Positions 479-50,349 of a DNA stretch of 64,000 nt are shown piece by piece. The DNA lies in the IMG/VR virus record IMGVR_UViG_3300045988_099631, positions 32,001-96,000 of that record; one strand, 5' to 3'. Position numbers and translations under genes: made by a program. The notes beneath the pieces were generated by a model, which made no database searches, was not told where the DNA came from, and saw only the letters and a program-made list of their open reading frames with translations. Each line of letters starts with the position of its first letter. Within the stretch, counting starts at the first letter, position 1. Source of the stretch: a virus.

Positions 479-1054
479 TCAAATTGTCAGCTCGTAGTCA
501 TCGCCATCAGCCGCTTCTCCGCCATCCGTTTCCTGTGGTTCTTCTCCCTGCATGGACTGACAAAGTTCCCAAAACGCATCTACGAAGCCGGTGTTGAATG
601 CCCGCATGAATTCTGTCCTGTCGTGCATATATCCTTTTGCCATCGCGTTTGCAAACGCAGTCCAGAGGCAGTCGATCATTTCTTCGCGGTATCCATCGCC
701 CTGAATGGCAATCTGTTCAACCCTCAGTTCAGCCCACGTTTTCTCCTCACCGGCGCTGTTTTTGTATTCTTTGCTTGACCATCTTCCGACGATTAAAACC
801 TGATCGCCCTTCCGAACGCGCTGCGCGATATTGGTTTGAGGAGATTCCCCTAATGCGAGGACGTTCATGAACTTTTTTTCCTCGTATGCTACGCCAAATG
901 TGACCTTTGGCATCGGGGGTTTGTTGTTTGAACCCTTTGTGTATTCGAGCTTTGCGTCCCGCGTAACCTTTCCCCAAATAAGCATGGTTTCGCATGACTG
1001 CCGCTTCGGGTCTTTTGGGTCCTGTGTGACCCCGCCGTTTATGATTGGCCTCAT
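479..1054 (-). CDS. SSB-like OB-fold protein with acidic C-terminal tail
   Basis: 191-aa ORF directly downstream of recT. It has an OB-like core (KGDQVLIVGRWSSKEY...AELRVEQIAI) and an acidic tail (DGDDYELTI). Confidence 0.45.
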   Translation of the reverse strand: MRPIINGGVTQDPKDPKRQSCETMLIWGKVTRDAKLEYTKGSNNKPPMPKVTFGVAYEEKKFMNVLALGESPQTNIAQRVRKGDQVLIVGRWSSKEYKNSAGEEKTWAELRVEQIAIQGDGYREEMIDCLWTAFANAMAKGYMHDRTEFMRAFNTGFVDAFWELCQSMQGEEPQETDGGEAADGDDYELTI

Positions 1055-2091
1055 TATTCACCACCGCCGAAAAAGCCATCGTCCGTGTAGGACGTTCCTA
1101 CTGCTTCCGGCTTGCTTTCGGTTGCTGCCTTTTTCCGCTTGACGGGTTCGGGAGCCTGTACCTCTTCCTGCTTGGCATCATTTCTTCGATCAAGTTCAGC
1201 GCTCACGGCAGTTTCATCGAAGAAGTCATCGTCCGATGCAGCAGTGATAGCAGGAGTTGTCGGAACCGCGCCAGTCACTTCTCCAGTTGACTTGTCAACG
1301 TTGATAATCGGCATATCGGGAATGATGCCTGATTCGGAATCATTGTCCATCGCATAACGAACTTCATTTGAGAGAGGCGCATAGCCAGAGTTCAAAAGGC
1401 TTCGTAGGACTGTTTTCTTGCACATTCTTTCCTGACCGCCGCCAACATCGTACCATGGCGTCGATTTGCGCATCTTTTCTTCCTCTTCCGCCGTCATTTC
1501 ACCAGCGATAAACTGGTCATATTTGTCACGTTTGAACGCCTGCGCGTATTTTTCTGCATGATTCAGGAGTTTTTCCATAGACCAGTATTCACTTCTGAAG
1601 AGTCCGTCCTTCAACTCGAAGTATGCGTAATAGCCGGTGATTTTTGCGCTTTCACGTTCTTCATCCGTGTCGTATACGTTGAAGTCAAACGACGGTTTCC
1701 CAGTTCTGCGGTCACGTCCCTTATATTCACCCTCGCGGATATCGATGCAATCGATATCGTTGTAGACCCCCGTAGAAAGAGCCAGTTGGAGCATGCCTTT
1801 ATAACCAAGGATAAAACTGCACGTCTGTCCATACGGCACAAGATAATATCCCATGCCAAGGGTCAGCCCCATACCTTCACCACGAAGTGCGGCTGCGACG
1901 ATTGTTCCTGGGTCACACATTTTAAGCTGTTCGGATGCGTTGACAGCGGAAATCAGCGTAGATGTGAATCTTGCAGCGACCTTATCGTCTTTCAGCGACT
2001 TCTGAATAAGTCCTTGCATCGCATTGGACGTGATGGCGTTTGAAAACGTCTGCGTCTTTGCAGGCGGCGTAAGTCTAGTTGTTGCGTTCAT
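1054..2091 (-). CDS. recT: RecT-family single-strand annealing recombinase
   Basis: 345 aa. Contains LGMGYYLVPYGQTCSFILGYKGMLQLA and other RecT core motifs. Sits next to a YqaJ-type exonuclease. Confidence 0.85.
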   Translation of the reverse strand: MNATTRLTPPAKTQTFSNAITSNAMQGLIQKSLKDDKVAARFTSTLISAVNASEQLKMCDPGTIVAAALRGEGMGLTLGMGYYLVPYGQTCSFILGYKGMLQLALSTGVYNDIDCIDIREGEYKGRDRRTGKPSFDFNVYDTDEERESAKITGYYAYFELKDGLFRSEYWSMEKLLNHAEKYAQAFKRDKYDQFIAGEMTAEEEEKMRKSTPWYDVGGGQERMCKKTVLRSLLNSGYAPLSNEVRYAMDNDSESGIIPDMPIINVDKSTGEVTGAVPTTPAITAASDDDFFDETAVSAELDRRNDAKQEEVQAPEPVKRKKAATESKPEAVGTSYTDDGFFGGGE

Positions 2092-3069: not shown

Positions 3070-3317
3070 GCGTTCACCTCCGGCATGTCGTATTCCGTAA
3101 TGCGCTTCAATGGGAAGTAATCAGGATTGACGGCAATTCGCGGCACATTCACCGCCACGACTATTGCTCTGTTCTTTCCCTTTCCAGCCGGCACAAGCAC
3201 ACGATCTCCAACGTTCAGTGCCATGTCTGTTTCATAGCTGTACCCGCGTCCGACGTATGCTTTCGCACTTTCTCTGTAAAATTTGACTTCAACGATCAAT
3301 GTGTTCCTTCCTTTCAT
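3066..3317 (-). CDS. hypothetical protein
   Basis: Start trimmed to the ATG at 3317, which forms an ATGA overlap with the exonuclease stop. 83 aa. Confidence 0.4.
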   Translation of the reverse strand: MKGRNTLIVEVKFYRESAKAYVGRGYSYETDMALNVGDRVLVPAGKGKNRAIVVAVNVPRIAVNPDYFPLKRITEYDMPEVNA

Positions 3318-3961
3318 ATTCTCAAAGTCATCGGCGGCATCTGCCGCTTTTGGATGTACCCCCAGAACGTATCTGCTTTGTCCAGCAGCCATGCGAGGTC
3401 TTCTTCGCACTCTGCCCGTTCGATTCGGCGTGTTCGTATTGACCAGTCACCACGGATGTCCTGAAGCGCGGCAAACAGATCAACAAAATCCCATCCAGTA
3501 GCCAATAGCTGCCATTGCGTTTGGGCGAGGTAGTAAATCGGCACATTTCCGTCCGCCCACTTTTCGTAGTCAACTTTCTTCATGGTCTGACCGGTTTTGA
3601 TTTCAAGGATGCCGTGCCGACCGTTTTCGTCGGTAAGTTCTCCGTCAAGGGTCGCCGTCAGCCAGGGCCGCTCACTCTGAGCCAGAATGTCGTATGGGAA
3701 GTGCTCAACCTGCATTTGCGGATTCATGGCTACATACAACTCCCGAAGCGCTGGCTCCATCCGAACGCCGCGTTCAACCGCAGCATTCGCGGATATGTCC
3801 TTTTGCTTTTTTTGCCCCGTTTTTATTTTCCAGAGTTCCACTGGCGACATCCAAGGAGATAGCCCGCATACTGCCGCAGCATCCGAGCCGCCGATTCCGA
3901 GTTCCTGCCGGCCTTCCAGCCAGCTTTCCCGGTCTTCAAAATGTTTCCGGATTAGGCTCAT
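3314..3961 (-). CDS. YqaJ-type viral recombinase exonuclease
   Basis: 215 aa. GIGGSDAAAVCGLSPWMSPVELW plus a PD-(D/E)xK-like core (DGELTDENGRHGILEIKT). Paired with recT. Confidence 0.8.
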   Translation of the reverse strand: MSLIRKHFEDRESWLEGRQELGIGGSDAAAVCGLSPWMSPVELWKIKTGQKKQKDISANAAVERGVRMEPALRELYVAMNPQMQVEHFPYDILAQSERPWLTATLDGELTDENGRHGILEIKTGQTMKKVDYEKWADGNVPIYYLAQTQWQLLATGWDFVDLFAALQDIRGDWSIRTRRIERAECEEDLAWLLDKADTFWGYIQKRQMPPMTLRI

Positions 3962-4771: not shown

Positions 4772-5173
4772 ATGTCTAAAGAGCCAAATATCAAAAGCAG
4801 TTCAGAGGACGAGGTGCTTGAACGCATTCTTTTCCTAATCGGTGACAAGCACGGAGGGGCATTGGAGCTTCTGCGTGCAATCGACGTAAAAGCAAAAAAC
4901 GTGGTAACAGAGTGGAAAGCAGGAAGGTCGAAATCGTACATGAAATACCTTCCGAAGATTGCAGCTTTCTATGGCGTTTCAGCTGACTGGCTTTTGACAG
5001 GCAAGTCCTTTGTTTCTCCTGATGTGCAAAAAAATAGCCCCGGCACCACAAATGATGCCGAGGTTGACGAGCTTGTCTCTTTATTCAATCAGATGTCTGA
5101 ATCCAATCGTTCCAAATTTCTTGAGCTTGGTCGCACCTTTGTAGACGAGCAACGCAAAACCGAAGGAATCTGA
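4772..5173 (+). CDS. CI-like XRE-family repressor
   Basis: 133 aa. HTH segment (KSYMKYLPKIAAFYGVSADWLLTGK). GGAGGT RBS. Divergent from the cro-like gene. Confidence 0.7.
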   Translation: MSKEPNIKSSSEDEVLERILFLIGDKHGGALELLRAIDVKAKNVVTEWKAGRSKSYMKYLPKIAAFYGVSADWLLTGKSFVSPDVQKNSPGTTNDAEVDELVSLFNQMSESNRSKFLELGRTFVDEQRKTEGI

Positions 5174-5303: not shown

Positions 5304-5462
5304 GCAGTGCTGGACGCGCTTGATGAAAACATCAAGATTGCTCCAAGCATCGGAGTCTGTGCAGATACTTTTTATGCTTTAAAGCAGGAATTTCTTCGTG
5401 TCATGAAGGAACGTAATGATGCCTTGGAGAAATTGCAGGAGGCATCCCATCATGAAGTGTAA
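5259..5462 (+). CDS. hypothetical protein upstream of the integrase (excisionase role not supported)
   Basis: 67-aa ORF with a GGAGG RBS. It overlaps the integrase start. Confidence 0.35.
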   Translation: MEVIYLGNNINERDQAVLDALDENIKIAPSIGVCADTFYALKQEFLRVMKERNDALEKLQEASHHEV

Positions 5463-6582
5463 ATCCTGTGGCCGTGAAATTGAAGTCAACTCTATGTTCT
5501 GCAACTGGTGTGGAGAAAAACAGATAAAGGAACGGAAGAAAAAGGATGAAATAAAAATACCATCTCCAAGAAAGTTGGCAAGTGGGAACTACCGCATTTA
5601 CCTTGATGCAGAGAAGCAGAGTATCACCGAGCCAACAAAAGCGCTCTGCGTAGCAAGAGCAAAAGCGATTCGGGCTGGTTTCATTGAACAAAAGAAGCAC
5701 TCCACTCGACTGACAGTTGGGGACGCCATTGACAAGATGATTGCTGAACGTGGACCTTCACTTTCCCCTTCAACCCGCCGCAACTATATATCGTATAGGA
5801 AAAACCATTTTCTCAACTTTATGAGTCGAGACATCTCTGGCATTTCAAAGAGCGAGTGGCAGATAGCCATTGGTGAAGAATTGGAAGATTGCGCACCTAA
5901 AACCGTTTGTAATGTATGGGCACTTATTACTGCCACAATGAATTATCTGGATGTTGACGTGCCCACTGTGACTCTCCCGGCATTCAAAAAAGGTGGCCTT
6001 CCGACTCTCGATTTTGAGCAGATTTTGGTCTTTGTTAAGGCTATTCGTGGAAAGCCTATTGAACTTGGTGCCCTTTTAGCGTTGCATTCTTTGCGCCGTT
6101 CTGAAATTATGGCTATTACCCATGACGATTTTCATTTTGATATTAAAGGTTCCGAATATATTTCAGTTGCTGGAGCAATCGTTTATGATGAAAACGGGAA
6201 ACTCGTTCGCAAAGACACTAACAAATCTGAGAAATCTACACGCCCTGTTCCAGTCCTCATTCCAAGGCTTCTTGAAATCATTCCGGATAACGATCCAATA
6301 ATTGATTGCTACCCTAATACGCTTACTCGTAGGATCAATAGCGTTTGTGCAGAAAACACTCTGCCACAGGTTGGTGTTCATGGACTGCGTCGTTCTTTCT
6401 GTTCCCTTGCCTACCATCTCGGTTGGAGTGAGGAGCGCACCATGCGTGTCGGCGGCTGGAATGACATTAAAGTCGTTCATGAGTGTTACCTTCAAGAATC
6501 TGCAAAGGACAAGAATGCTGCGACCGACAAGATGCGACGATTTTATCTTGGTAACTTGATTGAAGACGACCCCAATAAATAG
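5452..6582 (+). CDS. int: tyrosine integrase 1 with N-terminal zinc ribbon
   Basis: AGGAGG RBS before MKCKSCGREIEVNSMFCNWCGEKQ. C-terminal catalytic region HSLRRS...HGLRRSF...GGWNDIKVVHECYL. Confidence 0.85.
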   Translation: MKCKSCGREIEVNSMFCNWCGEKQIKERKKKDEIKIPSPRKLASGNYRIYLDAEKQSITEPTKALCVARAKAIRAGFIEQKKHSTRLTVGDAIDKMIAERGPSLSPSTRRNYISYRKNHFLNFMSRDISGISKSEWQIAIGEELEDCAPKTVCNVWALITATMNYLDVDVPTVTLPAFKKGGLPTLDFEQILVFVKAIRGKPIELGALLALHSLRRSEIMAITHDDFHFDIKGSEYISVAGAIVYDENGKLVRKDTNKSEKSTRPVPVLIPRLLEIIPDNDPIIDCYPNTLTRRINSVCAENTLPQVGVHGLRRSFCSLAYHLGWSEERTMRVGGWNDIKVVHECYLQESAKDKNAATDKMRRFYLGNLIEDDPNK

Positions 6583-8894: not shown

Positions 8895-9138
8895 TTTTCA
8901 CCGAATCCTTTTCCTGCAGCGGATTTATGAGCGTCATATTTTCACGCATTTCATTCCTGAGTTTTGTATATCCCGGCATATTTGGTGTCTGTTCCTCTGC
9001 GCAAACTTGGTGTATGCAATACCCGCGTATGAAATAGCTGCCATCGTCGAAATAGAACGCTTCTTCGTCCAGTATTTCTTCTCCGCACAGTTGGCAGTGT
9101 GTGCTAAAAGCCTTGTCACGATATTCTTTTAACATCAT
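8881..9138 (-). CDS. hypothetical Cys/His-containing protein (paralogue of 8643-8894)
   Basis: Contains CQLCGEEILDEE...YCIHQVC. Confidence 0.4.
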   Translation of the reverse strand: MMLKEYRDKAFSTHCQLCGEEILDEEAFYFDDGSYFIRGYCIHQVCAEEQTPNMPGYTKLRNEMRENMTLINPLQEKDSVKNDGV

Positions 9139-9685
9139 TCTCTCCTTCCAGATTTCCGGCGCTCCCCATGCGAATCGACTGCAAGAGGGCCTGTACTTCC
9201 TGCGGTAATTTTGTCTGTTCGCGTTCTCTCTGCTGAACCATTCTAAACGACCGTTGGATATTTGATGCTACAACGCTTTGCAGAGAATCAGTATCCAGCA
9301 ATGCCCACTCACTAAGCTGTTGTGGGCTGCCAACAATACGCTGAAGCGTAGGACTCAGTTTGCTGAATTCCTCTTGCGCTCCATATATACCATTCCGGCA
9401 CGCAGCAGATATTTTGGCCCACGCCTCCATTTCGGAAAGGTCATCATCCTGCATCAGTTTTCTCATTTGTTCCTTGATTGTTCCGATATTTGGTGGAAAC
9501 TCTCGGTTGCTTGCTACGATGATAGATTTCACTGCCGCTGCAACAAGCCTTGGGTCATCATCTGTGAACATTGAAGCCCACAAGTTGAGCGTATCGGTTA
9601 CATCTGAATCCGATACATTCCGGTAGAAGTTTGGATAGGCCGTTCGTAGCACAGCAAGGATTTTTCTTGTTTCGTCTCTTGTCAT
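9116..9685 (-). CDS. G39P-like replicative helicase loader
   Basis: The N-terminus (ETRKILAVLRTAYPNFYRNV...LWASMFTDDDPRLVAAAVKSII...FPPNIGTI) fits the SPP1 G39P family pattern. It directly follows the replisome organizer. Confidence 0.55.
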   Translation of the reverse strand: MTRDETRKILAVLRTAYPNFYRNVSDSDVTDTLNLWASMFTDDDPRLVAAAVKSIIVASNREFPPNIGTIKEQMRKLMQDDDLSEMEAWAKISAACRNGIYGAQEEFSKLSPTLQRIVGSPQQLSEWALLDTDSLQSVVASNIQRSFRMVQQREREQTKLPQEVQALLQSIRMGSAGNLEGENDVKRIS

Positions 9686-10575
9686 ATGTCCTCCCGTAAA
9701 AATGGATTGCTGCTGGACGCTTCGCGTGTGGATTGCGTTGCCGGTTGTGCTTTTCGGTCAAGCCATTCCCACACTATTCCTTGATAATTCGACGCCATGG
9801 TGCGTTCAATAACATCATTGACTGCCTGTGCTCCGTACTGGGCTACCTTCTTTTTCACCACCGTCATCAAAGACTGTAAGCCACGAGGGGTGTAGAATTC
9901 TTTGCGCTCGGTTTTGTATTCAAGCCAATTCTGCATTTGTACTTGAACCAGCGAAGGCAGCTTAGACATAGCCGCGCTGATCTCATCGGAAACTGGCTGC
10001 GTTTTTCCTCCCCTTTCCCCCGTACCCCCTTTTCCTTCTTTTTCTTTATTACTAGAAGTAGAACTAGAATTAGAAATAGAATTAGAAATAGAATAAGAGG
10101 GTAGATGTGCTGTAGATGTTCCTGTAGATTCTACATCTGACTTTGCATTATCGCTTGTATCTTCTGATTTCAGTTTCTTTGACAGCCGCCATTTTGCTTG
10201 GCTAATTCTTTTTTGTTCTCGGATTTTTGCCAGTTTATCTTCATTCTGATACATCATCCAATTCGACAGGAGGTATATATCGTCAATGATTTCAACCATG
10301 CCCTCATTGATGAAGAATTTCATACAGAGATCCAATTCTTCCGGTGTTCGATCAATCATGACCGCTATATCGCTGATTGACTGAAACGGAATTTCCCTTG
10401 AATTTATGAGGAATCCGGAGTGATTGCATTTGCCGGCGAAGTCCAGCAACTCAAACCACACAGCCGTCAGTTTATCGCGGAAGCTCTCGCCACCGATTTT
10501 GGCTTTTTTGATTTTCTTGAAGCTCTCACCGTCAAACATTCCGACTTTGAGCTTAATCCATTGAACGTTATCCAT
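9682..10575 (-). CDS. phage replisome organizer (SPP1 G38P-like)
   Basis: WIKLKVGMFDGESFKKIKK...KLTAVWFELLDFAGKCNHSGFL, which is the Phage_rep_org_N pattern. It has a low-complexity S/N/T linker and a C-terminal DnaD-like region. Confidence 0.75.
   Translation of the reverse strand: MDNVQWIKLKVGMFDGESFKKIKKAKIGGESFRDKLTAVWFELLDFAGKCNHSGFLINSREIPFQSISDIAVMIDRTPEELDLCMKFFINEGMVEIIDDIYLLSNWMMYQNEDKLAKIREQKRISQAKWRLSKKLKSEDTSDNAKSDVESTGTSTAHLPSYSISNSISNSSSTSSNKEKEGKGGTGERGGKTQPVSDEISAAMSKLPSLVQVQMQNWLEYKTERKEFYTPRGLQSLMTVVKKKVAQYGAQAVNDVIERTMASNYQGIVWEWLDRKAQPATQSTREASSSNPFLREDI
10022..10140. repeat. origin-like iteron block inside the replisome-organizer gene (copy A)
   Basis: Three GTAGAT boxes at 10101, 10112 and 10124, next to AGAAATAGAATTAGAAATAGAA and a pyrimidine tract. 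The 45-nt core 10091-10135 matches 35807-35851 at 42/45 by my alignment. Confidence 0.6.
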
Positions 10576-10777: not shown

Positions 10778-11203
10778 TCAAAATGGCAGATCATCTGCAT
10801 TCTCATCCAGCATCGTGAATCCTTCCGGAACATCAGATGCCGGTGCCGGTACTGTATGGATTGGTTTCGACGTTCCGTCTGCCTGCTTGCTCCCACAGAA
10901 ATAGACTCGTTCAGCTACAATTTCTGCGTTGCGGCGCTTATTACCATCTTTGTCCGTCCAGTTACGGATTTGAAGCTTACCATCAACCACAGCCATGCTT
11001 CCTTTGTCAAGATACTTTCCGACAAACTCTGCCGTCTGATTCCATGCGTTCACATCGAGGAAGTCTGTTTCACGCTCTTGTCCTTGAGTTGCATAGTCGC
11101 GTTCAACAGCAAGCGTAAAACTTGCCACAGACTTTCCGCTCTGTGTCACACGCATTTCTGGCTTCTTTACGATTCTTCCTTGTACAGTGATTCTGTTTAA
11201 CAT
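10778..11203 (-). CDS. ssb: single-stranded DNA-binding protein
   Basis: MLNRITVQGRIVKKPEMRVTQSGKSVASFTLAV...VDGKLQIRNWTDKDGNKRRNAEIV, ending in DDLPF. RBS AGGAGAG. Confidence 0.85.
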   Translation of the reverse strand: MLNRITVQGRIVKKPEMRVTQSGKSVASFTLAVERDYATQGQERETDFLDVNAWNQTAEFVGKYLDKGSMAVVDGKLQIRNWTDKDGNKRRNAEIVAERVYFCGSKQADGTSKPIHTVPAPASDVPEGFTMLDENADDLPF

Positions 11204-11312
11204 TTTCCACTCTCCTATTTCATTTAGATGCGTGCGTCGCGCCCACAGACGCCACACACGCCGTTTGTACGTTCTTTGTGTGTATTTTCACATTCTGGCG
11301 TGAAAATGTCCT

Positions 11313-14029: not shown

Positions 14030-14074
14030 ATTTTAGTCGTGGCTGCAAATGTTTTTTCCCATTCTTATGTCAAC
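14030..14074 (-). promoter_or_regulatory. class-A promoter: conserved 29-mer (14046-14074) plus TAAAAT 32 nt downstream of its TTGACA
   Basis: The minus strand reads GTTGACATAAGAATGGGAAAAAACATTTG. It is identical to the copies at 29941-29969 and 50305-50333. Confidence 0.55.
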
Positions 14075-14178: not shown

Positions 14179-17100
14179 TCAGATTACATCGAACAGGCAC
14201 AGATTGTCGTTCTGCTGAGACTCGTCAAACTCCTTCAGGTAGCCGACCGCATCGCGGAAGTAGTCATTATTGAGTTCAATGGTGTAGCCATGTCTGCCGG
14301 CCTTGATGGCTTCCAGCGCAACCGTTCCAAGTCCACCAAACGGGTCAAGCACCAAATCCCCCGGATTACTGTACCGGTTGATAAGCCTGTCAACGATGTC
14401 CAGCTGGAGGGGACAATTTTTCACAACGCACCCTTCTGCTGTATAGCTGGCATCGTCAGCAACACGAATGCTCCACGTTTCAGCGGTTCCTGCATCATCC
14501 ACAGATTTCACGCGCTTCCATGCGCCATCGTCAAGAATGCTGCCGAAATGATGTGTGCCGTTCCTCCAGCTTAAAACCCATAGCTGTTTCTGATTGACTT
14601 CGCGGCCAGCAATGGTATGCTTCCCCGCACGTTTCCCTGCAAATACCGAGGGGATAACGCCCAACGCACGCTGCGCAACCATGGCCATTCCAAGCATCAA
14701 GGCTCTCGAAACGGAGCACGCCATCGTTGCATTTCCAGCCTTGCTGCCGTCTCCGGACAGGTATCCATCAAGAAGCGATTTTGCCAACTCTGGATTCAGG
14801 CAAATTCCCTCAATAGGAACTTGCTTGTTTTCTGCTCTACGTCCGCATTTACGCAGGATTCCTTTCATGTTTTCTGACATTGCGCTGGAACGCAATCTGT
14901 ATTGGATGGCATCTCGTACCGCGCAGGAGCCAAAATATCCTTGTGCCATTTCCTCAAACATAGCCGATTTGGCTTTTCCGACGCTGATAAACCAGTCTCC
15001 ATATGTCCCAACATGTCCATCTGCAAGGTAACGGCCAACAATCCACCATTCTTGAGCGGTTAGATTGCTATCCTCGCAGGCAGGAAGTTTCAGGTTGACC
15101 CATCCGCCAGCTGTATCTTTTGCCTCGGTCCATTCTGGTTCTGTCTTAGGCATATAGTCCTTGCTGCGGATGTAATTATTCTTTCTCGTCCAGAGTTTGT
15201 GATTGGGTGTGGTAATCAGATTTGCCACGCCTTGAGCCTTGGTCTGAACAACAGGGTTCACACCGGTGCAGCGCTTTGCGATAACCGGTTTCCAGTTTCC
15301 CGTATGGGTCAGTACCATATCTCCAATTGAAATATCTTCAATTGGCTTATATCCATCCCTGGTCAATACGAGGCTCCCCTTTGCCAAACAAACATGGTTC
15401 TCTTTTCTGCGCTGGCTCTGCGTTGTATTGAGCGTCCGCATTCGGTTGATATCGTCCCATACCTGATCTGTCCAGCTTCCGGGCGCAACTACCATGAACG
15501 TGGCTGGCAGATGCCCGTCCTTGTCAAGCTCTTTCGCCAGTTTTACATGCTCGTCATAGCTGTAAACGGAATCACGGCTGTATTTCCTATAAATTGCTTG
15601 CAACTTTCCCGTGTCGGTATGCAGCAGTTCGTCTTTCGTAATCAGCCGATTTCCGGAACTGCGCCAGAACCCGTGTGCGTCGATCTGCCATTGAGCGCGT
15701 GTGTATTCGTCCTTCGTCTTGGATACGCGCTCATCCGCATATGCTTTGGAGCGGTCGGTTGGAAGCTTCCGGAATAGCAAGATGTACTCCGGGCAGCCGA
15801 CGCCCATTTTTGTCCCGTCCTTGCACTGCTCAGACCATCCGAGCCGGTACGTCTGGTTGTTCTCTCGAACGACGTCCGTAACGACCGTAATCATGCCGAA
15901 ATATGCAAATCCATGCTCCATATAGTGCTTAATGCACATAGCATGAAATGGTTCCATCGTCGGCATACCAGTCCCTGTCGCATTGCCGAAAAGAACACGG
16001 TCTTTCACATGGCAGCAGAATACACGTCCTGGTTTCAGAATTCTTAGAAGGTTCGGCGTCAGATAGTCCATCTGCTCAAAGAACTTTTCCGTATCCTCGT
16101 TGTGTCCGAAATCGTTATAGCTCGGCGTATATTCGTAATGATTGGAAAACGGGATGGACGTAACGATCAGATCTGTGCTGTTGTCTGCCATTTTCGCCGT
16201 TTCCTCGCAGCAGTCGTTGTTGACCGCGATCCAGTTCTTTCCTCTGATCTCCATTCTCTCAACTCCTATGCTTCTGGCCATTTCCTGCTTCATGCGGTCG
16301 CCGGAAAGGCCGTATTTTTTTACGATTTCCCGCATCTGCTCCTGCATATAGTCATGCTGCTTCCATTTTTTCTGCAAAACGTCCCAAATCGGGATCTCTG
16401 CCTCCGTATAGATGATGTCCACAATGACCTTCTCCGTCTGCAAGAAGCGGTAGCAGCGGTGGATCGCCTGAATGAAGTCGTTGAATTCATAGTCAATCCC
16501 GACGAAGATCATTCTGTGGCAATGCCTCTGGAAATTGCAGCCCTGACCAGAAAGCTCTTTCTTCGTAGCGAAGATTCGGATTTTTCCGTCGGAGAAATCA
16601 ATGACGCGCCGTTCGCGCTCGTCATAGTCCATTGTTCCGTAGATCTCTACGGCCTCTGGTATCGCGCGGTGTATCTCATGTCGTTCCGCTTCGAGGTCAT
16701 GCCAGAGGATAAAGCTTGCCTCCGGATCGCTGTCAACGATCTCCTTCGCCATCTGTACGCGTGCAGTAATTGTCTCGCGCTTTTCCCGCGATGCCTCCTG
16801 AAGGTTCGTGGCAGAATCGTTCATCATCTTCACTTGACCATCCCGGTCCGTGATCTTTCCGAATTCGTCGTGAACAACATGCGTTCTAACTTCGAGTCCA
16901 GGAAGTTCATATCCCTCGTCAGAATATCCGAGGTCTGACGGTTTTCCAAGGAACAGCGCCCACGAGCTGACCCACAGCCAGAATTCTTCTTCACGGTGGG
17001 GATAAAGGGTCAGGTTGTTGGCCTTTGTGCTGTCCCGCTTGAAGAACCGTGTAAGGGCCTGTCCGGTGTCCATGACTTCGAGATATCCTGCATAGTGAAT

Positions 17101-17655
17101 GATCTCCTTATACCTGTTCGGAGCCGGTGTGGCCGTTGCGACCATCTTATATTTGACACCCTTGAACTTCTGAAGGAACGTCTGATAGGTCTTGCTTCCG
17201 AATGAGCGAAGTACCGATGCTTCGTCAAGGCTCGTCGCCGCGAAGTACGCCGGGTCGATATCCCCGTCCCGGACACGCTCATAGTTGGTAAGCATGATCT
17301 CCGCTCCGGCGTTCTCGCGTACCTCCTGCATCGTCCGTACATAAACCGGTTCTTCGTATCCCAGAATATTCACGGCGTCCCGTTTGAACTCCTGCCGCAC
17401 GCCGAGTGGCAGCACAATCAACGCTGGCCTTCCTTCATGTTTCGCGGCATGATGGCAGAACTCCAGTTCCTGTACAGTTTTACCTAATCCGAAACTCTCG
17501 AAGAGAGCTCTTCTGCCGCCGCGCAGCGCCCAACGTACCGCATCCCTCTGATGCGGCTTCAGCGCCAGATTGATATCTTCCTCTGGAACGGAAAAGCCGC
17601 TCACCGGAGCCGTCTCGATTTTTGATTTCAGAAATTCCAAGTATTTGCTGTTCAT
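14179..17655 (-). CDS. SNF2-type helicase / N6- or N4-DNA methyltransferase fusion, interrupted by an intein
   Basis: Helicase motifs GLGKT and SLDEAS. Methylase motif IV-like DLIVTSIPFS and motif I DPFGGLGT. 1158 aa including a 325-aa insertion. Confidence 0.8.
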   Translation of the reverse strand: MNSKYLEFLKSKIETAPVSGFSVPEEDINLALKPHQRDAVRWALRGGRRALFESFGLGKTVQELEFCHHAAKHEGRPALIVLPLGVRQEFKRDAVNILGYEEPVYVRTMQEVRENAGAEIMLTNYERVRDGDIDPAYFAATSLDEASVLRSFGSKTYQTFLQKFKGVKYKMVATATPAPNRYKEIIHYAGYLEVMDTGQALTRFFKRDSTKANNLTLYPHREEEFWLWVSSWALFLGKPSDLGYSDEGYELPGLEVRTHVVHDEFGKITDRDGQVKMMNDSATNLQEASREKRETITARVQMAKEIVDSDPEASFILWHDLEAERHEIHRAIPEAVEIYGTMDYDERERRVIDFSDGKIRIFATKKELSGQGCNFQRHCHRMIFVGIDYEFNDFIQAIHRCYRFLQTEKVIVDIIYTEAEIPIWDVLQKKWKQHDYMQEQMREIVKKYGLSGDRMKQEMARSIGVERMEIRGKNWIAVNNDCCEETAKMADNSTDLIVTSIPFSNHYEYTPSYNDFGHNEDTEKFFEQMDYLTPNLLRILKPGRVFCCHVKDRVLFGNATGTGMPTMEPFHAMCIKHYMEHGFAYFGMITVVTDVVRENNQTYRLGWSEQCKDGTKMGVGCPEYILLFRKLPTDRSKAYADERVSKTKDEYTRAQWQIDAHGFWRSSGNRLITKDELLHTDTGKLQAIYRKYSRDSVYSYDEHVKLAKELDKDGHLPATFMVVAPGSWTDQVWDDINRMRTLNTTQSQRRKENHVCLAKGSLVLTRDGYKPIEDISIGDMVLTHTGNWKPVIAKRCTGVNPVVQTKAQGVANLITTPNHKLWTRKNNYIRSKDYMPKTEPEWTEAKDTAGGWVNLKLPACEDSNLTAQEWWIVGRYLADGHVGTYGDWFISVGKAKSAMFEEMAQGYFGSCAVRDAIQYRLRSSAMSENMKGILRKCGRRAENKQVPIEGICLNPELAKSLLDGYLSGDGSKAGNATMACSVSRALMLGMAMVAQRALGVIPSVFAGKRAGKHTIAGREVNQKQLWVLSWRNGTHHFGSILDDGAWKRVKSVDDAGTAETWSIRVADDASYTAEGCVVKNCPLQLDIVDRLINRYSNPGDLVLDPFGGLGTVALEAIKAGRHGYTIELNNDYFRDAVGYLKEFDESQQNDNLCLFDVI
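14416..15390 (-). other. intein (325 aa) with LAGLIDADG homing-endonuclease domain
   Basis: Starts with CLAKGSLVLTRDG (block A). Also has TPNHKLWT (block B), WWIVGRYLADGHV and LLDGYLSGDGS (two LAGLIDADG motifs). Ends in GCVVKN followed by Cys+1. Removing it joins ENHV to CPLQLDIVDRLI just upstream of DPFGGLGT. Confidence 0.8.
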
Positions 17656-23333: not shown

Positions 23334-23878
23334 AGTTCTTCCTCCACATACCGCCAGCTCTGCGGCGGGCGGGTGATTGGCTTGGGTTTTGCCTTGAGCG
23401 CTACCTCTACCTCATTTGGCACAGCGTAAAATTCCCGCAGTTCGCGCGGGGTGTCGTAAATCTTGAGATTGGAGATGTGCCAGCCGAAGCCGGTGGCAGC
23501 TCCGAGATACTGGTGCAGCTCCGCAGGCTCTAGGCAGGTTGGCCGCGCAGCATCCGACGGTATCCTTCCCGCGCCGTTAATGTTGATGATCTGATCGCAC
23601 AGAAATTCCCCGATAACCTTTTGCCGCTTATCCCATAAGCCAGTGGTCGGCGCTTTTTCCGTCTTTATGAAAACCGGCTTGCCGTGATACGTTTCTCCAT
23701 AATTCTCATCGCCGTCTTTCATAATGGTGAGTAGCTTTTCCTCCGGTTTTGTGCAGTAGATATAGCACTTAAACGGCGTATCCATCTTCGGGCGCGTCTT
23801 GCGCACCTCGATCGTTTTCTCTCCGCTTATGATCTTCTCGCACCACCTTGGTCTGATGCTGATTAAAACAGCTATCAT
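23321..23878 (-). CDS. ASCH-domain protein
   Basis: MIAVLISIRPRWCEKIISGEKTIEVRKTRPK. Confidence 0.65.
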   Translation of the reverse strand: MIAVLISIRPRWCEKIISGEKTIEVRKTRPKMDTPFKCYIYCTKPEEKLLTIMKDGDENYGETYHGKPVFIKTEKAPTTGLWDKRQKVIGEFLCDQIININGAGRIPSDAARPTCLEPAELHQYLGAATGFGWHISNLKIYDTPRELREFYAVPNEVEVALKAKPKPITRPPQSWRYVEEELWND

Positions 23879-29924: not shown

Positions 29925-29969
29925 ATCATACTCATGCCAACAAATGTTTTTTCCCATTCTTATGTCAAC
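29925..29969 (-). promoter_or_regulatory. class-A promoter: conserved 29-mer (29941-29969) plus TATGAT 32 nt downstream of its TTGACA
   Basis: The 29-mer is identical to the copies at 14046-14074 and 50305-50333. Confidence 0.55.
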
Positions 29970-33382: not shown

Positions 33383-34000
33383 ATGGCGAAAACATCAGCC
33401 GCGCAAATTAAAGCGGCGCAAAAATGGCAAGCGGCAAATGTGGATAGATTATCTTTAGTAGTTCCCAAGGGGCAGCGGGACGAGATCAAAACGGCAGCGG
33501 CGGTGGCTGGTGAATCCGTCAACGCCTATATCATCGCGGCCATTCGGGCGCGGATGGGAAACGCGGACGGCGGCGCGGCTCCTGCGGCCGAGATCGTCCA
33601 GGCGGCGCAGCCGGTAGCAGAGGCGCAGCCGGGGCAGGTGCTCGACGGGGCCGCGCTGGAGTCGGCCAAGGTGGCAGCGGCGGCAGCCGGGGAGGATTTG
33701 CCCGCATTTGTGGCGCGGGCCGTCCGGCAGGCGGCGGACGCGGACGCGCGGGAGCGCCTGCTTGCGGTAGCGTGTAAAAATGCAAGTTTGCCGTCGTCAG
33801 CAGACGCAAGCGCGGCGGCTGAATCTTGCGAGACTTCCGCGTGTGATGTCGTGGACTGGGCCGCACGCACGGACCACCTGCGCGCGCTGCGAGAATCCGC
33901 CCGCGCGTCCGCTGGAATTCCAAGCCCTGAACAGACGGCTCCCGGAAATTCTGGGGACTTACCGCCTGAACAGGCAGGGTCGAAAACTCCGGGAGACTGA
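33383..34000 (+). CDS. ribbon-helix-helix (Arc/CopG-like) DNA-binding protein
   Basis: DRLSLVVPKGQRDEIKTAAAVAGESVNAYIIAAIRARM. Start set at MAKTS, after a GGAGGG RBS. Confidence 0.55.
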   Translation: MAKTSAAQIKAAQKWQAANVDRLSLVVPKGQRDEIKTAAAVAGESVNAYIIAAIRARMGNADGGAAPAAEIVQAAQPVAEAQPGQVLDGAALESAKVAAAAAGEDLPAFVARAVRQAADADARERLLAVACKNASLPSSADASAAAESCETSACDVVDWAARTDHLRALRESARASAGIPSPEQTAPGNSGDLPPEQAGSKTPGD

Positions 34001-34090
34001 CGGCCTGAACAGGGACGCCGGAAAACTCTGGGGCTGATGGACGGACACCGAAAAAACTGAACAGAGTGCCCGGAAAACTTCGGGGTATAG
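33925..34090. repeat. four degenerate direct repeats CTGAACAG-N-CCGGAAA-N-GGGG (three at a 39-nt period)
   Basis: Units start at 33927, 33966, 34005 and 34057. They straddle the stop codon at 34000. Confidence 0.5.
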
Positions 34091-35366: not shown

Positions 35367-35705
35367 ATGACAAACGCAGCAATCATTCTGGATGAATCCG
35401 TTCGGTTAATGAACGATGGCATTCTTAAAGGCACGGGCCGATTCCTCGACGTGGTAAACGAGGACGGAAGCACCAAAAAACTCGAAATCCCCGAAGAAAT
35501 CCACACGTTCAACGCTTGGAAGCAGCGTGGCTTCATCGTCCGCAAGGGTGAACACGCCGTCGCGTCTTTCCCGATTTGGAAGTATGTCACCCGTAAGAAT
35601 ACCACTGACGAGCCGCTGGAGGCCGCAGAAGCGGCGAACGGGTTCTGCCGGATGAAACTATCCCATTTCTTCACTGCGCGGCAAGTGGAGTCTCTGAGGG
35701 CGTGA
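35367..35705 (+). CDS. ArdC-N / DUF1738-like small protein (possible ssDNA-binding anti-restriction fold)
   Basis: IHTFNAWKQRGFIVRKGEHAVASFPIW and SHFFTARQVESL resemble the ArdC N-domain motifs (F.QW...G..VRKGEKG and vFN..Qve.L). Confidence 0.4.
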   Translation: MTNAAIILDESVRLMNDGILKGTGRFLDVVNEDGSTKKLEIPEEIHTFNAWKQRGFIVRKGEHAVASFPIWKYVTRKNTTDEPLEAAEAANGFCRMKLSHFFTARQVESLRA

Positions 35706-35724
35706 GAACACAAAAGGGGATTCT

Positions 35725-35860
35725 TCCCCTTTTCCTTTCCCCCATACCCCCTTTCTATTACCCTTTCTTTCCTTAAATATTCTTAGATACAGAAATAAGA
35801 TAATAAGAATAAGAGGGTAGATGTGTTGTAGACGTTCGTGTAGATTCTACAGTGGAGTCT
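35725..35860. repeat. origin-like iteron block, copy B (intergenic)
   Basis: The core 35807-35851 matches 10091-10135 at 42/45. The flanks share a pyrimidine tract and AGAAATAAGA-type AT-rich repeats. Confidence 0.6.
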
Positions 35861-35960
35861 ACAGCAAACAGTGAATATACATCCGCGCATATACAAAAAG
35901 CCGCCCCATTTGGGACGGCTTGCTTTTTACCTTTGTGGCACATATTTTATGTGATTTTCT

Positions 35961-35987
35961 GGGACAAATCCGTTTTTCCGGTAGAAG
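35961..35987 (+). promoter_or_regulatory. class-B promoter 5 (GGGACA-15-TAGAAG)
   Basis: Motif read upstream of the ATG at 36027. Confidence 0.5.
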
Positions 35988-36026
35988 TATAAGTGTAAAG
36001 AAAAAGCAAAAAACGGAGGCGCAAAA

Positions 36027-36140
36027 ATGAAACACTATTACAAATCCAGCGGCTTTCAGATGTTCCTCACGGGCGCAGCCATCGCAGTCATGTTCATCAT
36101 TATCCTGTGCGCGGACTCGCTCATCGAGTTCATTCTGTGA
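36027..36140 (+). CDS. small membrane protein (37 aa, below the track cutoff)
   Basis: Hand-found MKHYYKSSGFQMFLTGAAIAVMFIIILCADSLIEFIL with a GGAGG RBS. Confidence 0.4.
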   Translation: MKHYYKSSGFQMFLTGAAIAVMFIIILCADSLIEFIL

Positions 36141-40879: not shown

Positions 40880-41015
40880 AGATTGCAAGCAGGTCGCAAG
40901 TTGGTCGCAACACTCCATTCAACTATGGGAAAATAGCACGCGAAACGCACGAAAACCGCACGCAAGTTGTAAGCAAGTTATACGCAAGTTGTAAGCAAGT
41001 TATACGCAAGTTACC
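40880..41015. repeat. GCAAGTT iteron array (five contiguous 11-nt units at 40961-41015, plus looser copies at 40880-40915)
   Basis: CGCAAGTTGTA AGCAAGTTATA CGCAAGTTGTA AGCAAGTTATA CGCAAGTTACC. The 22-nt unit is repeated exactly. Confidence 0.7.
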
Positions 41016-45367: not shown

Positions 45368-46471
45368 ATGGAATATTCCTACAAATTTAGGCTGTGCCCA
45401 AATGCGGCTCAGAGAAACTTAATACAGCGCACTTTCGGCTGTGCTCGATTTGTGTATAACCACTTTCTTTCTGAACGCATTGCGCAGTATCGAGAAACTG
45501 GGAAATCTCCTACACGATTTCAGCAGGATAAGGAACTCACTGTACTCAAGCAGAAACTCGGATGGCTGCAAGAGCCAGATAAATGCGCCTTGCAAAATGC
45601 TGTGAGGAATTTAGACGCCGCATATAAGAACTTTTTTCGCCGAGTAAAGAACGGTGAGAAGCCCGGTTTTCCAAAGTTCAAAAGCAAGCGCAACCACAGA
45701 CAGAGCTATAAGTCAAATGGTAGCATCAGAGTTTTTGACAATGCAGTTCAACTGCCGAAACTGGGAAAAGTCAAATGCCGTATCAGTCGAAAGGTTGAGG
45801 GTAGAATCCTCTCTGCCACAGTATCACAGAATCCAAGCGGCAAATATTTCGTATCACTCTGCTGCACTGACGTTGAAATCGAGCCATTGCCGAAGACCGG
45901 TGCTGTGATCGGCGTTGATATGGGACTGAAAGCGTTCGCAATCACGTCCGAAGGGATGGAATACCAGAACCAGCGCTATTTAGCCAAGAACCAGAAGAAA
46001 CTTGCCAGATTGCAACGGCAACTCTCCCGAAAATCAAAGGGGAGTAACCGGCGCGAAAAAGCGAGGATTCAGGTGGCACGGCTGCATGAGCATATCACAA
46101 ACCAGCGCAGCGACATGATGCACAAGCTGTCAACACAGCTCATTCGTGAGAATGATGTGATCTGCATCGAAGACTTAGAACCGAAGAACATGGTCAAGAA
46201 CCATAATCTAGCGAAGTCTATCAACGACGCAGCGTGGGGCGAGTTCAGGCGGCAGCTGGAGTACAAGGCCGCGTGGTACGGGAAGAAAGTCATACAGATT
46301 GACCGGTTCTTCCCTTCTAGCCAGTTATGTTCCTGCTGCGGGTATCGGAATACCGATACGAAGAATCTGGCCGTGCGTGAATGGACGTGCCCTGAATGTG
46401 GGATACACCATGACCGGGATGTAAATGCCGCAAAGAACATTTTGAGTGAGGGCTTGCGCCTGTTGGCCTAG
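45368..46471 (+). CDS. tnpB: TnpB RNA-guided endonuclease (OrfB_IS605 plus zinc ribbon)
   Basis: N-terminus [13 protein letters not shown]. RuvC residues in [14 protein letters not shown] and [11 protein letters not shown]. Zinc finger CSCCGY...CPECG. Confidence 0.85.
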
Positions 46472-50304: not shown

Positions 50305-50349
50305 GTTGACATAAGAATGGGAAAAAACATTTGCCCCTTGGAGTATAAT
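50305..50349 (+). promoter_or_regulatory. class-A promoter: conserved 29-mer (50305-50333) plus TATAAT 32 nt downstream of its TTGACA
   Basis: GTTGACATAAGAATGGGAAAAAACATTTG, then TATAAT at 50344-50349, an AAGGAGG RBS and the ATG at 50373. Confidence 0.55.

Follow-up and report, generated by a model that had tools for sequence, protein, structure and literature searches.

In phage lambda, the stretch of gene O that encodes the initiator's linker contains ori-lambda, in which iterons precede an AT-rich region; lambda has this single origin, lambda P delivers DnaB, and among the lambdoid phages the iteron type and the DNA-binding part of the initiator are exchanged together. Two separated clusters of the same initiator-binding repeats are found within one replicon in the satellite phage P4, as ori and crr, the latter being required in cis, and in the plasmid R6K with its distant origins. 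In Bacillus phage SPP1, oriL lies within gene 38 and oriR in a long intergenic region beside moron genes; G38P binds both sites with similar affinity, theta replication begins at oriL, and G38P bound at oriR has been proposed to hold up the fork and set off the change to concatemer synthesis (PMC6316719, PMC5737612, PMC3485210). Here we describe a comparable arrangement in a 64,000-nt stretch of DNA (the window; bases 32001–96000 of the 112,491-nt IMG/VR virus record IMGVR_UViG_3300045988_099631) from an uncultured gut phage, in which a module of iterons and AT-rich DNA occurs twice, once inside the gene for a replisome organizer (copy A) and once in non-coding DNA (copy B). We assign a probability of roughly 0.6 to the combined reading that copy A is the replication origin, carried in the linker-coding DNA of the initiator gene, and that copy B is an old duplicate of the module only, retained as an optional second site.

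The layout and order of the elements are the same as in SPP1, because gene 38 of the SPP1 record (X97918.2) shows 11-nt-period repeats and then AACAATGAT-type AT-rich repeats, with a second copy elsewhere: a 48-nt stretch of oriL and oriR recurs at 87.5% near position 4900. In both phages the origin, putative in the case of the window, separates the DNA-binding part of the organizer gene from its C-terminal part, with iterons at ~11-nt spacing followed, in the sense of the gene, by a short-repeat AT-rich tract. A further copy, partly homologous to the first, stands in both phages amid accessory genes, in non-coding DNA with transcription signals on either side. Both have organizer and loader genes that overlap by 4 nt, and a RecT-type recombinase, an exonuclease and an SSB (a protein that binds single-stranded DNA) encoded nearby. 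Unlike SPP1, the window phage has an organizer without detectable similarity to G38P (BLASTP E = 0.1), which matches PF09681 (N-terminus) only, whereas G38P matches PF09524 (C-terminus) only. Its boxes are unrelated in sequence to those of SPP1, its genome, 2.5 times larger, carries integrase genes, and in its clade only some members possess the second site. SPP1 encodes the helicase G40P; in the window phage, a search of the 112-kb genome gave no match to the DnaB-type helicase family PF03796; the control search matched 14/14 genomes, 11 of them above the family cut-off.

The first-pass annotation had read these features as a G38P-like organizer followed by a G39P-like loader in a phage of SPP1-like two-origin design. 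Copy A does lie in linker-coding DNA and the next gene does encode a G39P-type loader (PF11417, E = 3.4e-17), but the organizer is G38P-like in name and architecture only. The analogy likewise stands for the iteron and AT-rich module in the organizer gene and for the second, non-coding copy, and fails for a phage DnaB-type helicase; nor is the two-site layout a fixed feature of the phage group, copy B being lacking at the same site in five relatives and also in 15 distant genomes. SPP1 G38P itself (X97918.2 35578–36348, L301), the namesake of the "replisome organizers", fails PF09681 (Phage_rep_org_N), and SPP1 G39P, at 19.6 bits, does not reach the 22-bit cut-off of PF11417, the family to which it belongs. 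Both PF09681 and PF09524 are present in the organizers of the more distant relative L181 and of a set of ~40-kb proviruses. With lambda, the window phage shares the in-gene position of the putative origin and, together with its relatives, the joint change of boxes and basic helix; the protein family differs, and the window phage has a G39P-type loader. In comparison with P4 and R6K, copy B is dispensable in nature, and P4 alpha and R6K pi are unrelated to the window organizer. In a collection of annotated phages neither copy had a DNA match apart from an SSB fragment, and Rfam gave no RNA family at copy A or copy B, only three tRNAs elsewhere.

Copy A, a putative origin within the organizer gene

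The open reading frame (ORF) that contains copy A matches PF09681 (E = 3.7e-20; 72.6 bits, cut-off 23.3) as well as phrog_4880 "replisome organizer", and in a search of the whole genome it is the sole PF09681 gene; the loader gene comes directly after it, the loader start overlapping the organizer stop by 4 nt. Copy A comprises a C-rich polypyrimidine box, an AT-rich tract and an iteron core (Table 1). The AT repeats form a Tandem Repeats Finder array of period 6/12, fall in the lowest 0.1% of the genome's 50-nt GC windows and vary in unit number among relatives; this tract is a candidate DNA-unwinding element. The three direct GTAGAT boxes are spaced 11 and 12 nt apart, and the third forms part of the palindrome GTAGATTCTAC. 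Boxes, AT repeats and C-rich box all encode residues within the disordered stretch of the organizer.

A position inside a coding sequence raises the alternative that the repeats reflect only a repetitive Ser/Thr-rich linker protein and that the true origin lies elsewhere, and the linker is indeed of low complexity (STGTSTAHLPSYSISNSISNSSS), with a number of repeat units that varies among relatives. However, the box spacing is not a multiple of three throughout: because it is 11 and then 12 nt, box 3 falls in another frame than do boxes 1 and 2, which marks the boxes as a feature of the DNA, as a peptide-driven repeat would keep a multiple-of-three period. The linker peptides are, moreover, wholly different between box types while the DNA layout persists, and third codon positions are best conserved across boxes and AT repeats. 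When the window is compared with L177, whose organizer is 50% identical, third-codon-position identity over these elements peaks at 0.75–0.83 where amino acid identity is 0.5–0.67, and third positions elsewhere range from 0.14 to 0.67. DNA of the copy A type is also retained where it is non-coding, in copy B. Peptide-driven repeats were rejected on these grounds, and we consider them a very improbable explanation of copy A.

The in-gene layout is present in every relative examined, down to ~25% protein identity. Fifteen related IMG/VR contigs fall into the three groups of the clade: group 1 (the window, L001–L007 and L011), with GTAGAT boxes, and groups 2 (L008–L010 and L015) and 3 (L012–L014, ~60% protein identity), both with GTAACG boxes. 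All three share a C-rich box, AGAAT-type repeats, AATAAGAGG, three direct boxes at 11–12 nt and a final palindromic box. Beyond the clade, boxes are found as GTAGAT in the organizer gene of L177, as five GT[AC]ACG boxes in L178, as GTAACG in L179 and as GGTAGACC, three direct and one inverted, in L181 (contig G014), whose organizer is 52% identical. The ~40-kb PF09681 proviruses of low-GC Gram-positive bacteria (G016–G031) share the N-domain family and the in-gene module, in which purine-rich GAAGAA/TAGAA repeats come after three or four GTCACG or GTAACG boxes; the box type follows the basic helix described below. They differ from the window in their ~25% identity, their PF09524 C-domain and the absence of a second site, as each of the 14 genomes checked has exactly one box cluster, within the organizer gene. 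Because the layout recurs in every relative examined and the box sequence changes with the basic helix, copy A is very probably the phage's replication origin, bound by the organizer.

Box sequence and the basic helix of the organizer

An AlphaFold model of the organizer, made with 19 relatives, consists of a winged-helix-like N-domain, a long basic helix (aa 112–138), a disordered segment (aa 139–194, the linker, with predicted local distance difference test (pLDDT) values below 50) and a helical C-domain. A fold search with this model returned weak matches, the top ones all winged-helix regulators, and a search by sequence found no solved structure for organizer or loader. In groups 1 and 2, residues 1–112 are nearly identical, yet the boxes differ (GTAGAT versus GTAACG), and all of the alignment columns that separate GTAGAT-type from GTAACG-type proteins (26/26) fall at aa 113–173. 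Basic helices of the form REQKRIxQAKWR or AKQAKWR occur with GTAGA boxes (group 1, L177 and L181), and those of the form TRLRVxK[HY]R, RQANYR or RQAKFR with GT[AC]ACG boxes (groups 2 and 3, L178 and L179). The W of QAKWR accompanies GTAGA boxes in three lineages; H, Y or F stands there with GT[AC]ACG boxes. If the organizer binds the boxes at all, the location of every separating column at aa 113–173 places the specificity in the basic helix, most likely at aa 113–134, after the winged-helix domain.

Matched helix and box types were also noted among the low-GC ~40-kb proviruses (L185–L244, GC 32–37%), in which KIREQNRLRKQKQR occurs with GTCACG, and KIRxQTRERVRKHR and NEKNRLRQQRYR occur with GTAACG. 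These provirus pairings suggest that a helix-plus-iteron unit has been exchanged across the PF09681 family.

Copy B, a duplicate of the module in non-coding DNA

The first-pass annotation had reported a 45-nt core shared by 10091–10135 and 35807–35851 at 42/45. This is correct, and a repeat search extends it to a 46-nt core with 43/46 matches (93%), in direct orientation and 25,716 nt apart. The homology that it described beyond the core proved real but uneven. The C-rich box, CCTTTCCCCC[G/A]TACCCCCTTT, is matched at 20/21 and lies collinearly upstream of the core in both copies, and the AT-rich middle is poorly matched, with 32 identical positions of 57/51 and with indels. When each block was compared by blastn with the whole genome (112,491 nt), only its partner was matched (core, E = 8e-14; C-rich box, E = 0.001), and a third copy of the module was thereby rejected. 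Core and C-rich box together are identical at 63/67 positions, against 32/57 in the middle, a difference with a binomial P of 5e-12 if the whole block had drifted at the rate of the middle. The homology stops where the origin module stops, and the flanking domain-coding DNA is not part of it. The AT-rich tracts of A and B are the fourth and fifth lowest-GC spots of the genome.

Copy B had been placed in an intergenic position on the other arm of the genome, and this is where it lies: between the genes at 35367–35705(+) and 36027–36140(+), and on the other arm because gene orientation switches at ~30 kb. Non-coding DNA between hairpins, among accessory genes, thus contains a second box cluster with an adjacent AT-rich tract. 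The stem of the left hairpin is preserved in relatives despite altered loop and stem bases. In the core of copy B the middle box reads GTAGAC, and there is an extra inverted box, GTCTAC. On its minus strand copy B retains the old organizer frame (VESTRTSTTHLPSYS, ORF 35773–35943).

The position of copy B, ~100 nt upstream of a promoter-type repeat of the phage, would suit an operator for the neighbouring accessory genes, acting through the organizer or another protein. A terminator-like hairpin, however, separates copy B from this promoter and another separates it from the upstream gene, and relatives that lack copy B retain the same promoter and downstream gene. An operator role was rejected with the two hairpins isolating copy B and with promoter and gene kept without it, and it is hardly to be credited.

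Distribution and fate of the second site

Copies of the B type occupy the same site in at least six records of one clade (the window, G006, G009, G010, contig 118335 and L129). In the three whole B-bearing relative records they lie in direct orientation 17.6–23.9 kb from copy A, compared with 25.7 kb in the window. When the B copies are compared with each other and with A, all changes fall in spacers or at box position 6 and never in GTAGA; in G010 exactly one unit has been cleanly lost. An exact scan of IMG/VR with the 14-mer AGAATAAGAGGGTA served to find further carriers of copy B, the matches listed being mostly chance.

An apparently separate case is found in G014, where GTAGACC boxes (GGTAGACC) occur in only two clusters, one in the organizer gene (15717–15760) and one intergenic (23746–23801), 8 kb away, where it lies upstream of a gene for a serine recombinase. 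AT-rich DNA borders the second cluster on either side, two of its boxes are direct and three inverted, and its flanks show no homology to those of the first; shuffled genomes yield such clusters in 0–1% of trials. It looks like an independent recurrence of a second site and is the strongest independent support for one.

A different insert was seen at the copy-B slot of the complete group 2 genome G001 (IMGVR_UViG_3300045988_120248, C1:7200–7520, L025). Its ~175 nt comprise TCTCTA repeats and a palindrome of 37 nt, TGTAACAATGTTCGCACAATGTGCAAACATTGTTACG, in which two GTAAC boxes stand inverted; a search of IMG/VR found the palindrome in G001 alone. The insert hints at a second site matched to the phage's own box type, an idea that depends on the two inverted boxes, because the palindrome is found only in G001, and two boxes are weak evidence, with a rough estimate of ~4% for a chance match.

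These distributions bear directly on whether copy B is a functionless relic, that is, linker DNA of the organizer gene copied into an intergenic slot by illegitimate recombination and drifting since. About half of the close relatives, complete genomes included, lack B with no visible compensation, the old reading frame is still visible on its minus strand, and the slot holds different inserts in different relatives, behaving as a cargo hot spot. Weighed against this, the core and C-rich box of B are far better kept than its middle, B spans the origin module only, with no flanking domain-coding DNA, the GTAGA cores are intact in all B copies, the single deletion removes exactly one unit, and G014 has an unrelated second cluster with matching boxes. 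We hold it unlikely that copy B is a relic without function. Most likely the organizer still binds copy B, and copy B acts as an optional second site of the oriR type known from SPP1; as a still-functional, optional second organizer-binding module it has, in our judgement, good odds.

Several points weigh against the combined reading of A as origin and B as optional second site. The high identity of the A and B cores could result from gene conversion, and the rapid change of the middle could result from repeat slippage. The organizer model is of modest confidence (mean pLDDT 60), with no fold match at E ≤ 0.001. Helix and boxes are no more than ~100 nt apart and could co-vary through physical linkage alone. 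At the site of copy B, G007 and G008 (group 1), G002 and G005 (group 2) and G003 (group 3) have no boxes, and instead a 100–266-nt terminator-bearing segment is present; four of these five genomes are at least 97% complete. Because they carry a box-free segment at the same site, copy B is dispensable in nature. Among more distant genomes, 15 (14 proviruses and G013, the complete genome of L177) have a single cluster only. The mutual similarity of the B copies is not independent evidence, because all come from one narrow clade. Cumulative GC skew, finally, turns near 30 kb together with gene orientation and not at A or B, and is neutral for both sites.

A possible mechanism

Sequence, uniqueness in the genome, gene identities, conservation and co-variation are the observations from which the following scheme of binding, melting, firing and fork effects is drawn. 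The organizer would bind the three direct GTAGAT boxes and the inverted box of copy A, which lie about one helical turn apart, and the adjacent 77% A+T repeat tract would then melt. The G39P-type loader would bring in a helicase, which must be the host's, because the phage encodes none. Copy B would be an old duplicate of C-rich box, AT-rich tract and iterons, in the same order and orientation, in a non-coding slot of the accessory-gene arm. It might act as a secondary origin, or the protein bound there might form a barrier that stalls forks and so switches replication to recombination-dependent concatemer synthesis, a switch for which RecT, the YqaJ exonuclease and the SSBs would be available.

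Among these roles, we tentatively entertain a second origin, at somewhat less than an even chance. A barrier or switch only is rather unlikely, an absence of function somewhat more so, and copy control by pairing quite improbable. The broader alternative that copy B is organizer-bound but is not an origin, its only part being that of a fork barrier or handcuffing partner by which replication from A is timed or limited, is rather doubtful too. It agrees with the role that the current SPP1 model assigns to oriR (PMC3485210, PMC6316719); the extra inverted box in B and the boxes in both orientations at the second site of G014 would suit a tight or bidirectional block, and RecT, YqaJ and SSB genes are present. 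On the other hand, copy B retains the AT-rich tract and the C-rich box in the order of copy A, neither of which a mere binding site would need, and the barrier role is only a model even in SPP1.

Genome context and other repeats

The ends of the source record overlap by 55 nt, which identifies it as a circular assembly of ~112.4 kb; the genome has 49% GC. In addition to the genes of Table 1, the phage encodes a DUF1351 protein and a second SSB, making two SSBs in total.

Table 1. Features of copies A and B and associated genes (window coordinates)
Feature	Position	Strand	Remarks
Copy A C-rich polypyrimidine box	10012..10032	+	CCTTTCCCCCGTACCCCCTTT; minus strand codes KGGTGERG; kept across the three clade groups
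Copy A AT-rich tract (candidate unwinding element)	10033..10089	+	77% A+T; TAGAAT/TAGAAA repeats at 10053-10098
Copy A iteron core	10090..10135	+	AATAAGAGG, then three direct GTAGAT boxes (10101, 10112, 10124) and one inverted box; palindrome at 10124-10134
Copy B	between 35367-35705(+) and 36027-36140(+)		intergenic; the latter is a 37-aa gene; neighbours are small accessory genes
Terminator-like hairpin, left edge of copy B	35712..35733	+	AAAAGGGG-ATTCTT-CCCCTTTT; just past the stop of 35367-35705
Copy B C-rich box	35734..35754	+	CCTTTCCCCCATACCCCCTTT; non-coding; 20/21 to copy A
Copy B AT-rich tract	35755..35805	+	76% A+T; lowest 0.2% of the genome's 50-nt GC windows
Copy B iteron core	35806..35862	+	AATAAGAGG; core homologous to A 35806-35851; GTAGAT 35817, GTAGAC 35828, GTAGAT 35840; palindrome GTAGATTCTAC; extra inverted box 35857-35862
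Strong terminator-like hairpin	35898..35928		10-bp stem with 7 G-C pairs; closes the copy-B cassette
Promoter-type repeat of the phage	35960-36026		downstream of the 35898-35928 hairpin
Replisome-organizer gene	9682..10575	-	297 aa from MDNVQ; PF09681 and phrog_4880
G39P-type helicase-loader gene	9116..9685	-	PF11417 Inhibitor_G39P
SSB gene	10778-11257		just upstream of the organizer gene
RecT gene	1054-2091		recombination toolkit
YqaJ exonuclease gene	3314-3961		recombination toolkit
Tyrosine integrase gene	5416-6582

Other repeats and genes of the window were recorded in passing. A non-coding, perfect 22-nt tandem array of ACGCAAGTTGTAAGCAAGTTAT (40960–41013; 2.4 copies, with an 11-nt sub-period GCAAGTTRTAA in 4.7 copies) resembles iterons, is unrelated to the GTAGAT boxes and might likewise bind a protein, perhaps as an operator, a partition site or a further origin. 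A 39-nt tandem repeat with 72% matches is present in 2.6 copies at 33942–34037. The 29-nt element TTGACATAAGAATGGGAAAAAACATTTG, which begins with a perfect -35 hexamer, occurs in three copies, two of them identical, at 14046–14074(-), 29941–29969(-) and 50305–50333(+), and may be a shared early promoter or operator heading transcription units. The gene at 14179–17655(-) encodes a 1158-aa fusion with SNF2-type helicase domains, a Hint (intein-like) domain at ~aa 755–799 and a C-terminal N6/N4 DNA-methylase domain, and among the accessory genes of the plus arm is a TnpB/IS605 OrfB-type gene (45368–46471(+)) with HTH_OrfB_IS605, OrfB_IS605 and Cas12f1-like TNB domains.

Implications

The known principle, by which the initiator gene holds the origin and a second copy is optional, is unchanged by this work; the layout was already known from SPP1, of which this is a new example. 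What the analysis provides is a concrete candidate origin for a family of uncultured human-gut phages of ~110 kb, together with evidence that second sites of the SPP1 style turn up again where the initiators have no detectable homology to G38P, by an old duplication within the clade and, apparently independently, in G014. The second site is dispensable in nature, and natural variants with and without it exist. Judged from the co-variation of helix and boxes, the determinant of specificity would be a small part of the protein. A bolder and unlikely proposal is that the second site, as an optional cassette open to swapping, governs how these large gut phages pass from circle-to-circle to concatemer replication, and that the helix at aa 113–134 (W versus H/Y/F at 129) alone reads the boxes. 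If this were true, helix and boxes would constitute a portable specificity unit exchanged among phages, and the natural variants with and without copy B would offer a ready test of the unproven barrier model of SPP1 oriR.

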